64,000 nt of DNA from an uncultured Desulfobacteraceae bacterium (GCA_964410925.1 CAYPIW010000017.1:2428-66427); one strand, 5' to 3'. Counted from the stretch's first letter, positions 32,160 to 45,772 are shown. The notes: generated by a model not told the origin, from the sequence alone. A program made the numbers and translations.

Positions 32160-32530
32160 AAAGAATCCTGGTCCAAAAGACCAGGCTTTGTTTTATCCCC
32201 AGAGAAAATTTGCTTTGTTGGAAGTTCATTGACTTATTGAAATTCCAATTAACAAATCCCAAAAAATTTACCCTGTTAAATAATGCTTCGCATTAAATCT
32301 AAGATTTATTTAACAGGGCAGGCAAATAACAATGACCGAAATTCGAAAATCCAAACAATGTTTCGTCCTAAGAGGTTTTGGTTATTGAATATTGGAATTT
32401 GTGATTTATTTGTAATTTGGTGCTTGGAATTTGTGATTTTAGGTACAAAACTCCAAGGCAGAACCATATATCTCTTACTCCCGCAAAGCGGGAAAAGCTT
32501 GTCCTAAAGGAGCAGGCTTTTCAGGGCACA
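32160..32530. mobile_element. Triple-nested element: CCTGGTCCAAA.GACCAGG shell, TTGGAAT-type cargo, inner CCCTGTTAAATA palindrome
   Basis: Shell ends resemble 45458-45490 and 45722-45770; inner TIR ccctgttaaata / tatttaacaggg at about 32271-32318. Confidence 0.72.
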
Positions 32531-32587
32531 ATAAATATATAGTTTATGTCTTAGTGCCTGGTGGCAAATATTTTCAGGTTTAAAAAA

Positions 32588-33514
32588 TTACAGCGGGTGC
32601 TTTTTCAGAAAATTCTTAACCAGCGGAATAATTCTGACTGGCGCATCTTCGAGAACATAATGACCCGCATCTTTAAATACATGAACCTCTGCCTCCGGGA
32701 AACGGCGACGCCACTCGTCAAGGTATTGGAAATCAAAAACAAAATCATGCTCACCCCAGCAGATCAGCATAGGGATGCGGTTGAGTTTGAACAGGTTTTC
32801 ATCAACCGTCTTGACAAGGCCATAACTTGGATCCTTCCGCCTGACGGGAATATCCTGAACAAACTTTAAGGTTGCAATCCGGTTATTCCAACTGTTGTAA
32901 GGAGCGATGAGGCCCGACTTAACATCTTTATTCATTCCTTTGTAAGATGCCATGTAGAGCGCACCATAGACAAACAGATTAAATCCCTGCACCGCCAGGG
33001 TTGCGAACAGCGTGACATTCCGCACCAGCTTCAGCCTTATGGGAAGCGTTTTTCCCCTGGGCGGAAGAAAGGCGGCGGTATTCATAATCACGATTCGACC
33101 GATCCGTTGAGGGTATGTTACCGCATAGACCATACCGATCATCCCGCCCCAGTCATGAAGTACCAGTGTAATTTTCTCCTTAATCTCAAGATGTTCAAGA
33201 AAACTTTCCAAATCACGGACACGGCTTTTTAACCGGTAATCGTATTGTTTGATACCAGGCTTGTCAGACAGTCCGCATCCGATATGATCCGGCGCCAGGG
33301 AACGGTATCGGTCTGACAACTCCCGGATCAGCTCGCGAAAATAGAAAGACCATGTTGGATTTCCGTGAATCATAACAACAGGATCACCGGTTCCCTGGTC
33401 CAGGAAATGATATTTCAGACCGTTTATTTTCATGTAATGGGACGTAAACGGATATAGATGGCGAAAAGCAAGAGTATTAATTGGTCTGTTTTTTCCCATA
33501 TATTGAACATCCAA
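32588..33514 (-). CDS. oleB: OleB-like alpha/beta hydrolase (beta-lactone decarboxylase; haloalkane dehalogenase family)
   Basis: HGNPTWSFY, HDWGG, AGHYVLED; follows oleA; start likely at MGKN (about 33499). Confidence 0.8.
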   Translation of the reverse strand: MDVQYMGKNRPINTLAFRHLYPFTSHYMKINGLKYHFLDQGTGDPVVMIHGNPTWSFYFRELIRELSDRYRSLAPDHIGCGLSDKPGIKQYDYRLKSRVRDLESFLEHLEIKEKITLVLHDWGGMIGMVYAVTYPQRIGRIVIMNTAAFLPPRGKTLPIRLKLVRNVTLFATLAVQGFNLFVYGALYMASYKGMNKDVKSGLIAPYNSWNNRIATLKFVQDIPVRRKDPSYGLVKTVDENLFKLNRIPMLICWGEHDFVFDFQYLDEWRRRFPEAEVHVFKDAGHYVLEDAPVRIIPLVKNFLKKHPL

Positions 33515-33712
33515 CGCGGATAAACCGGAAAAGTGACTAAAGTGAACTAAAGTTTGAAGTGCCTAAAGTTAAAGTGTCGCTTCGCTCCATCTATTCATAT
33601 AAAATTGGTAGAATTCCATAATTTTAGGCATTTTAGATCACTTTAGATCACTTCACACTTTTTTTAAGTTTAGATTTTTTTGCCATAAAGCACACAAAAT
33701 TTAAAACTAAGC
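33510..33712. repeat. CCGGAAAAGT-shell element with AAAGTG cargo and GCTTCGC core
   Basis: Similar copies at 46785-47010 and inverted at 57875-58073. Confidence 0.8.
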
Positions 33713-33736
33713 AACAAATACCCAACATCCATATTT

Positions 33737-44259: not shown

Positions 44260-44274
44260 ACCCATATTATCCAT

Positions 44275-45453
44275 ATGATCGGAATATCAAAACTTTACTG
44301 TGGAACCGTTGAACCGTCCGATGCCCTTCGTTACGGGCGAATGTCATCAAAATTACCGTCCCACCTTTTGCAGTTTTCCAGCGATAAACGGCCGGTAATC
44401 GTCTGGAATATTACACAGCGATGCAACTTAAAATGCGTGCACTGTTATGCCCAGGCAAAGAACATGGCGGTTGACAGTGAACTTTCAACCCTGGAAGGCA
44501 AACATCTGCTGGATGATCTTGCAGAATTCGGAGTTCCGGTTATTTTGTTTTCCGGTGGGGAACCGCTGACCCGGAAGGATCTCCCTGAACTTGCAGCCTA
44601 TGCCGTGAAAAAGGGTATGAGAGCCGTTATCTCAACGAACGGAACCCTGATTACCCCTGAAAAAGCCCAAACCTTAAAAGAAATCGGCCTGTCATATGTG
44701 GGCATAAGTCTGGATGGAATGGAGGAAATTAATGACCGGTTCAGAGGCGTGAGGGGAGCTTTCAAAGCGGCTTTGCAGGGAATTGAAAACTGTAAAAAAG
44801 CAGGGATAAAAGTCGGGCTCCGCTTTACAATTAACAAATCCAATGCGTCTGAAATCTCAAAAATTTTTAAACTGCTCCAGGAGATGGATATTCCGAGAGC
44901 ATGCTTTTATCATCTGGTGTATGCGGGTCGCGGAACAGATCTCATAAAAGAAGATTTGTCCCATCAGGAATCCCGAAACGCCGTGGATCTTATCATGGAT
45001 CTGACAAAACAATTACATGACAGGGGGCACATTAAGGAAGTCTTAACCGTGGACAATCACGCGGATGGCCCGTACCTTTATTTGAGGCTGCTTAAGGAAA
45101 ATCCGGAGCGGGCCCGGGAGGTTCTGGAACTTCTTCAAATGAATGAGGGCAACAGCTCCGGCATCGGCATCGGCTGCATCAGCTGGGATGGAGAGGTGCA
45201 TGCCGATCAATTCTGGCGTCATTACAGTTTCGGCAACGTCAAAGATCGGCCCTTTTCTGAAATCTGGACGGATACTTCGGATCCGCTGATGAAAAAACTT
45301 AAGGAGAAAAAAAAGCACGCCAGGGGAAGATGTGCAACCTGCAGGTGGCTGGACATTTGCGGCGGAAATTTCAGGGTACGCTCCGAAGCGGTAACCGGGG
45401 ATATCTGGGCTCCGGATCCGGCATGTTATTTGACAGATGAAGAAATAGCGTGA
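44275..45453 (+). CDS. ahbC: Radical SAM/SPASM AhbC (NirJ1)
   Basis: MIGISKLYCG, CNLKCVHCY, LTVDNHADG, SPASM cysteines. Confidence 0.92.
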   Translation: MIGISKLYCGTVEPSDALRYGRMSSKLPSHLLQFSSDKRPVIVWNITQRCNLKCVHCYAQAKNMAVDSELSTLEGKHLLDDLAEFGVPVILFSGGEPLTRKDLPELAAYAVKKGMRAVISTNGTLITPEKAQTLKEIGLSYVGISLDGMEEINDRFRGVRGAFKAALQGIENCKKAGIKVGLRFTINKSNASEISKIFKLLQEMDIPRACFYHLVYAGRGTDLIKEDLSHQESRNAVDLIMDLTKQLHDRGHIKEVLTVDNHADGPYLYLRLLKENPERAREVLELLQMNEGNSSGIGIGCISWDGEVHADQFWRHYSFGNVKDRPFSEIWTDTSDPLMKKLKEKKKHARGRCATCRWLDICGGNFRVRSEAVTGDIWAPDPACYLTDEEIA

Positions 45454-45457
45454 GTAA

Positions 45458-45772
45458 AGAATTCTGGCCCAAAGGACCAGGCTTTGGTTTGCCCCTTAAA
45501 GGGGATGTTTAGCTAAAACCGTACAAGTTAAAAGTGTCTAAAGTGATCTAAAGTGTGAAGTGGATAGTGAGCTAAAGTGTGAAGTGTGAAGTGAACTAAA
45601 GTTTTAAAATGAAGCCGCTGAGGGCGGCACCTTAAACTTTAGGCACTTTCAACTTTAGTTCACTTTAGGCACTTGTATTTCACCTTAACTTTAGTTCACT
45701 TCAAACTTTTTCAACGATTTTTCAGGCAGAGCCAAAAAACTCTGACCACGCCCAGAGGACGTGCTTTTCTAA
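45458..45772. mobile_element. CTGG.CCAAAGGACCAG shell with AAAGTG cargo
   Basis: Inverted copy of 13240-13499; same shell as 32160-32530. Confidence 0.82.

Follow-up and report, generated by a model that had tools for sequence, protein, structure and literature searches.

Ends of an IS200/IS605 element enclose unrelated hairpin cargos in an uncultured Desulfobacteraceae bacterium

How can repeats that share their ends hold entirely different interiors? This question is raised by a stretch of 64,000 nucleotides from an uncultured Desulfobacteraceae bacterium (GCA_964410925.1 CAYPIW010000017.1:2428-66427), referred to as the window, which belongs to a genome of 3.93 Mb on 244 contigs (G000). 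The original prediction described two copies of a shell (here shell C) with common ends and different arrays, together with two other shells (A and B), and proposed that the interior is exchangeable or independently regenerated. All repeat features cited for the window were located again (Table 1). Shell C was present, its exact coordinates being corrected to 32158-32530 and 45454-45778; read as a transposon, each of the two copies lies on the minus strand. The three shells belong to three different transposon families and do not form one system.

Table 1. Positions of shells, cargos and neighbouring host genes in the window
Feature	Position	Strand	Remarks
IS200/IS605 element of 373 bp, non-autonomous, with type-1 cargo	32158..32530	-	Profile matches
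Right end of the 32158 element	32158..32207	-	Terminal tetramer 32158-32161
Subterminal 19-nt hairpin of this right end	32167-32185		Second hairpin worn
Cargo type 1	32208..32455	+	Inverted heptamer arms of four-helix-bundle cassette, gene deleted
Retained start codon of cargo type 1	32332-32334		Followed by first codons; alignment to gene-bearing L145
Left end of the 32158 element	32456..32530	-	Worn; small palindrome nested in hairpin
Target tetramer TTAT of the 32158 element	32531-32534		Just outside the element
IS200/IS605 element of 325 bp, non-autonomous, with type-2 cargo	45454..45778	-	Autonomous-only profiles, E 2.1e-11 and 3.7e-13
Right-end hairpin of the 45454 element	45463-45481		
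Cargo type 2	45506..45722	+	Inverted 7-10-nt arrays
Left-end hairpin of the 45454 element	45746-45764		
Target TTAT of the 45454 element	45779-45782		
Half element, IS200-family left end and type-2 cargo	13228..13500	+	E 5.9e-11
Free type-2 hairpin	33529..33668		Without shell-C ends; also 46822-46962
ahbC, host gene preceding the 45454 element	44275..45453	+	TIGR04546 above cut-off
hemB, host gene following the 45454 element	45807..46781	+	NF006762 above cut-off
Shell A MITE, 129/155-bp body	10585..10735	.	6-bp flanking duplication 5/6
Shell A MITE, REP-like palindrome dimer	11015..11147	.	6-bp duplication 6/6
Shell A MITE, same 129/155-bp body, inverted copy	24023..24173	.	6-bp duplication 6/6
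Shell B MITE holding array arms plus the 5' remnant of a four-helix-bundle gene	27141..27591	+	9-bp duplication 8/9
Shell B internal-deletion product	51603..51677	-	Like the 81-bp form on contig C48
Shell B MITE, gene-less array interior	61913..62171	-	

Copies of shell C were collected from G000, 118 GTDB loci, 120 metagenome or viral loci and 11 loci of relatives, which yielded 124 complete elements, 249 and 162 end matches, and 61 solos. The copies were dispersed. Matches to the 45454 element were retrieved from all 24 other family genomes searched, and among the GTDB matches listed for its end motif, 78 of the 80 with titles were Desulfobacterales, Desulfobacteraceae, deltaproteobacterial or Thermodesulfobacteriota records; viral contigs contributed just two matches to the shell-C hairpin. 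A search of the window against Rfam matched no family.

The common ends, on whose significance the original prediction had made its case depend, proved statistically significant. The two left ends were 88.8% identical along 36 nt (E 3e-7 for the 3.9-Mb genome), and profiles from which G000 copies were excluded recovered each of the window's four ends (E 6.5e-16 to 1.4e-7), with 64 and 61 matches in the genome versus 0 and 0 in the reversed genome. Profiles built from autonomous elements only matched positions 45723-45788, 45447-45507, 32156-32203 and 13220-13287, including three of the four ends of the two elements. The right end of the 32158 element was among these (E 1.2e-7); its worn left end was matched only by the non-G000 MITE profile (E 1.4e-7). 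The arrays between the ends do differ between the two copies. The 45454 element starts directly after the stop codon of ahbC. A right end of the half element at 13228-13500 was searched for and not found. Tiny palindromes are repeatedly inserted in arms and in the left-end hairpin, both in the window (about 32271-32318, nested in the type-1 cargo, and 32476-32500) and in many other shell-C copies. A further shell with type-2 hairpins occurs at 14060-14275, 25800-25990 and 51080-51385; its copy at 14060 lies inside a shell-B right end and shows an apparent 5-bp duplication.

Shell C is the pair of left and right ends of an IS200/IS605 element without the transposase gene. Each end contains a related 19-nt hairpin in direct orientation, with compensatory variants among copies. 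At locus L288, the same ends enclose an intact 145-aa Y1 transposase on the opposite strand (PF01797, 141.6 bits; NF033573, 147.1 bits versus a cut-off of 55), which scores 30 bits with the RAYT model, below its cut-off of 80. Close homologues of this TnpA were present in 22 of 251 genomes of the order, at 30 loci, most of them with shell-C ends (tnpA-bearing loci with such ends: L288, L392-L421, L483 and L484). Three multicopy sets (G257, G241 and G143) define the borders of the autonomous element, and cognate tnpA elements occur within the family as well (G016, G054, G001 and others). A search of G000 for an intact cognate tnpA found none, only three fragments (44-57%), which counts against inferring mobility in G000 at present. 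The RAYT-type Y1 genes of G000 had no shell ends by eye in the flanks shown. In 18 of the 31 autonomous loci (L288, L392-L421), tnpA is flanked by an inverted repeat with an exact match of 8-13 nt, the first arm of which ends approximately 24 nt before the start codon; this repeat could act in the folding of the interior or in translation control.

The guide at the foot of each hairpin, following the logic described for IS608 (PMC3201880), predicts the cleavage tetramer. Among autonomous elements, the fourth guide base paired with the final base of the cleavage site at 23 of 25 left ends (shuffled mean 8.5) and at 26 of 27 right ends (shuffled mean 15.4), counts that include related copies and are therefore not independent. 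At the left end, this pairing spans four different targets; similar covariation of guide and target has been seen in ISGst elements (PMC10055086). The left ends of the MITEs paired in 72 of 78 cases (p 0.004), 68 of the 162 left-end matches having been dropped as weak. Their right ends paired in 162 of 197 cases, with small variation and no departure from the shuffle (p 0.67), and in just 7 of 14 cases in G000. Among gene-less copies, 48 of 58 carried the tetramer TTAT just beyond their left end. No target duplication was detected for lengths of 2-10, flank identity being at most 0.50 without a peak. In addition, the top strand of shell C lay on the leading-like strand in a ratio of 54:28 (p 0.005), with shell B as a control at 45:44, a comparison of moderate weight that relies on the skew at four-fold sites of short draft contigs. 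This measure replaced the raw contig GC skew, which is confounded by gene direction, and one closed genome with too few matches was left out of the count. The bias is toward the lagging-strand template, as expected (PMC5027513).

The array cargos of shell C (types 1 and 2) and of shell B are gene-less remnants of four-helix-bundle (PF05635) cassettes, as the similarity of their arms shows. TIGR02436/PF05635 is the 23S rRNA intervening-sequence protein family. In G000 and in 14 of 15 genus genomes, inverted arrays stand on both sides of the PF05635 genes, and every clade of these genes has an array of its own. The arms of types 1, 2 and shell B match the arms around PF05635/TIGR02436 genes, those of the rarer classes by eye only. 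Indeed, the 32158 copy can be aligned with the gene-bearing locus L145 past the start codon and into the first codons, and the type-2 arrays resemble those flanking a four-helix-bundle gene on contig C90 of G000 (78% over 90 nt, E 2e-12). Gene-bearing cassettes were found inside shell C in 2 of 14 cases for type 1 (L453, which is L145, and L458) and in at most 1 of 16 for type 2, with a weak end match. Similarly, both shell-C ends were present at only 7 of 116 type-2 and 8 of 44 type-1 hairpin loci of G000. Since the arrays thus read as remnants of cassettes that mostly lie outside any shell, an independent regeneration of arrays within the shell, as originally proposed, finds no place. All 23 interiors that were folded formed long-range stems, covering 53-98% of their length (z -1.0 to -7.9). 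Shorter IS608 derivatives reportedly excise better. In-frame heptamer arrays also occur in the gene of a PfaA-like polyketide synthase (2458 aa), at 36085-36272 and 37700-37832, and translate as low-complexity linkers at about aa 1491-1535 and 2011-2073. Furthermore, a GxxExxY (TIGR04256) gene of G000 (L014, C8:20666-21016) is bracketed by inverted arms of its own, as four-helix-bundle cassettes are. Elsewhere in the window, a small gene pair at 6818-7455 resembles, by eye, a toxin-antitoxin module of the AbrB/PIN type.

Orthologous spacers gave evidence of alleles without the element. The genes ahbC and hemB were both present in 26 of 30 loci, with shell C between them only in G000 and G006; seven of the spacers are short and the remainder hold about five other kinds of insert. 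Across the family, at least six unrelated hairpin element types occur at this junction (L026-L055), which is a turnover hotspot. For the spacer at 32089-32588, both genes were found in 7 of 30 loci, 61-516 nt apart; here shell C was limited to G000, where a different element surrounds it. A contig from run X9 of a close strain (9 differences over 555 nt) links 45454 with 45778 and represents an allele without the element; it skips 45455-45777, within one base of each predicted border, the letters between the joined borders not being known. In X7 and X9, the whole 32124-32574 block is absent. No circle junction was listed among the X-run contigs compared, contigs being a form in which rare forms are lost. 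Among 118 GTDB loci and 48 G000 sites, no orthologous site held one shell with two cargos, and a single empty/filled pair was found (L247/L254, single- versus double-hairpin).

The 124 complete shell-C interiors fell into 20 BLAST classes, of 58, 38, 5, 4, 3 and 2 copies plus 14 singletons, with tnpA and two short remnants included, so that one shell does enclose unrelated interiors. A shell tree of 104 full-ended copies in 14 classes (20 truncated copies were dropped) required 16 class changes, versus a minimum of 13 and a shuffled mean of 45.6, and the nearest shell had the same cargo class in 90 of the 104 copies. This near-minimal number of changes indicates that cargo mostly travels with its shell, and so close a tracking points to infrequent captures, independent of one another, after which the composites multiplied as units and underwent few real swaps. 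Mismatches were found nonetheless: L350, L375 and L330 have shells that are 94-95% identical around three different cargos, in L286 a different array sits in a type-1 shell, between spacers shared with type 1 on both sides, and copy C117 of G000 is an end-swapped chimera, its left end resembling type 2 at 97% and its own class at 80%. Neither the 20 classes nor these exceptional copies can result from the simple copying of a single MITE, as had been predicted. The comparison of shell and cargo trees put forward in that prediction thus had a mixed outcome, class mostly following shell with some real mismatches; exchangeability of the cargo holds for a few real swaps and fails as a routine process.

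Starting from the ends, main cargos and empty alleles described above, it seems probable (about 0.8) that in these IS200/IS605 elements tnpA was replaced by hairpins derived from four-helix-bundle cassettes, the composites being spread as units by TnpA acting in trans. The replacement likely took place through a series of rare independent captures, with a single capture for each type of hairpin. A free, array-armed cassette would enter the interior of an element as it would any permissive spacer, after which tnpA or an older cargo, and then the cassette's own gene, would be deleted, leaving the hairpin. The composite would then probably spread as one unit through single-strand peel-and-paste with TnpA in trans; occasional recombination between copies would swap an end, and slippage between near-identical end hairpins would give rise to single-hairpin scars. 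A pre-capture 'open' interior was not observed among the loci compared. Shells A and B would represent parallel cases with DDE-type MITE ends.

Alternatively, the shell may assemble around its cargo, orphan ends landing on both sides of a resident hairpin and being paired by TnpA. This order of events is unlikely, although several observations suit it. Half elements are common in G000 (18 of 116 type-2 loci and 12 of 44 type-1 loci are one-ended, as is the 13228 element in the window), more hairpins lie free than within shells (61 and 21 free loci), and the same spacers draw many elements. In addition, the left-end tree separates the main classes poorly, with 12 main-class changes versus 2 on the right-end tree, but the left-end tree (61 columns) is too weak for counting swaps. 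Half elements, however, arise through decay or contig ends too, and each of the roughly 17 classes of hairpin would require two insertions in its immediate vicinity. Shell sub-lineages moreover retain left and right variants that match each other even where the cargos differ (L350/L375/L330 and L276/L286).

Less probable again is a routine, targeted exchange, in which a dedicated recombination, perhaps with the four-helix-bundle protein, swaps hairpins in a standing shell. Such a process would readily give L286, which differs from type 1 just in its array hairpin within common flanking spacers, as well as three cargos within one shell sub-lineage and the unrelated palindrome within shell B of G125. 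The shell-C tree of 104 copies nevertheless showed no sign of it, class changes being near their minimum; 14 of the 20 classes are single copies, no recombinase is linked, and plain spacers without a shell display the same turnover.

The hairpin motif occurred 72 times in G000 (23 in the first flank pair, 16 in the second, 11 as single hairpins and 22 partial), and none of these 72 matches was a reverse hairpin junction. In 21 of 44 solos, a left-end guide is joined to a right-end terminus, as would result from slippage that removes the stretch separating the hairpins, in keeping with the favoured explanation; inverted repeats are known to assist excision at direct repeats (PMC5576700). The coexistence of single- and double-hairpin forms in G000, and at one orthologous site (L247/L254), might suggest integron- or phage-like site-specific integration, in which a single hairpin would serve as attachment site and be doubled by the integration of a cargo circle, but this is very improbable, as the copies pass on separate left and right variants of the hairpin instead of duplicating one at each site, tnpA is flanked by the same ends, and empty orthologues lack any hairpin. 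The inheritance of the hairpins and the tnpA-bearing form likewise refute a hairpin that is a target duplication or attachment site.

Shell A is a MITE of an IS1182-like element. Its 22-bp termini occur as 96 paired copies (139 termini being unpaired), with 47 interiors holding the 129/155-bp body, 46 the REP-like dimer and 3 others; the second interior appears to resemble a REP dimer. The presence of the 155-bp body at two sites of the window and of a REP-like palindrome at another was as originally described. Of 95 copies, 28 showed a perfect 6-bp duplication and 40 a duplication with no more than one mismatch, whereas no other length gave more than two perfect cases. At L435 (G015), the termini of shell A enclose a 536-aa transposase with DUF772 and DDE_Tnp_1_6 domains. 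An assignment to IS1182 proper was rejected (NF033551, 159.7 bits, below the cut-off of 270), hence the name IS1182-like. Shell A termini also surround a 218-aa gene, TetR-like by eye, on contig C96 of G000 (29253-30089); whether this represents a capture is uncertain (flank match 3/6).

Shell B is filled with arrays at 27141 and 61913, as had been stated, with a second array hairpin nested within the former copy. The supposedly empty copy at 51603-51677 has a truncated left end and retains one array unit in its right end, and therefore reads as a deletion product, not as an unfilled shell. By our reading, the 42 complete copies form a deletion series of one four-helix-bundle cassette with later nested inserts, and those of G000 are not a swap series. 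Gene-bearing full forms of 665-667 bp were found at L131 and L133 (9-bp duplication 8/9 and 9/9). Flank identity at 9 bp was 0.60, versus at most 0.36 for other lengths, with 8 of 24 copies within one mismatch and a perfect duplication in L133 and L446. The latter, a shell B in another family, has an unrelated palindrome inside. Searches of the order and of plasmids retrieved no shell-B transposase, the five IS256-type loci found being without shell-B termini. Another MITE family, represented at 59067-59404 and 61454-61643, has termini that resemble those of shell B and shares its array type, but differs in the subterminal sequence; the copy at 61454 shows a perfect 9-bp duplication.

Known transposon families explain the repeats; the arrangement of the passengers is new. 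Shell C resembles IS200/IS605 elements (tnpA-only IS200 type) and PATEs in having two related subterminal hairpins with 4-nt guides at their foot, a fixed target tetramer, no inverted termini or duplication, a Y1 transposase and non-autonomous copies. PATEs are described as ends-only elements (PMC7290912), whereas shell C encloses either unrelated hairpins of 130-330 bp, which fall into some 17 classes, or an entire four-helix-bundle gene; it also retains two extra hairpins inside its ends. It was therefore not classified as a strict PATE, only as PATE-like, its interiors being of unrelated origin and up to a whole gene. Nor is it a MITE in the sense of terminal inverted repeats. Like REP/REPIN/RAYT systems and TIRtrons, shell C consists of intergenic palindromes linked to a Y1 enzyme; unlike in those systems (PMC3733652), its enzyme is an IS200 TnpA above the NF033573 cut-off and its hairpins are direct, in IS-end orientation. 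Shells A and B agree with MITEs and with passenger-carrying units such as IMU (PMC3184786, PMC10969869) in their terminal inverted repeats, 6- or 9-bp duplication, absence of a transposase and movement in trans, and differ from IMU in holding nested repeat cassettes instead of resistance genes. The cargos have the same genes and arms as TIGR02436/PF05635 cassettes, the gene-less hairpins keeping the start codon and post-stop tail, with the difference that some ride inside transposon ends of at least two families. The papers searched contained no account of the shell-C family and no description of IS200 ends with heptamer or four-helix-bundle cargo; the available text of PMC4679880 holds nothing on IS200 ends carrying such cargo.

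The tangled intergenic repeats of these sulfate reducers can thus be assigned to three named systems of transposon ends and a single class of passenger. Shell C offers natural IS200 derivatives that carry about 17 kinds of foreign hairpin, even a gene, and a natural guide/target series with four target tetramers in one TnpA clade. More tentatively, IS200 ends may be a general carrier of structured passengers, in which hairpins are favoured and cassettes and heptamer repeats spread partly by hitchhiking, possibly aided by the cassette protein. Long hairpins might be favoured as cargo because folding of the single-stranded interior would bring the ends together, and selection for folded cargo may follow this route. 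Within the literature searched, shell C is the first testable carrier for four-helix-bundle cassettes, most of which lie outside shells, and spread by a borrowed transposase would let these enzyme-less cassettes move.
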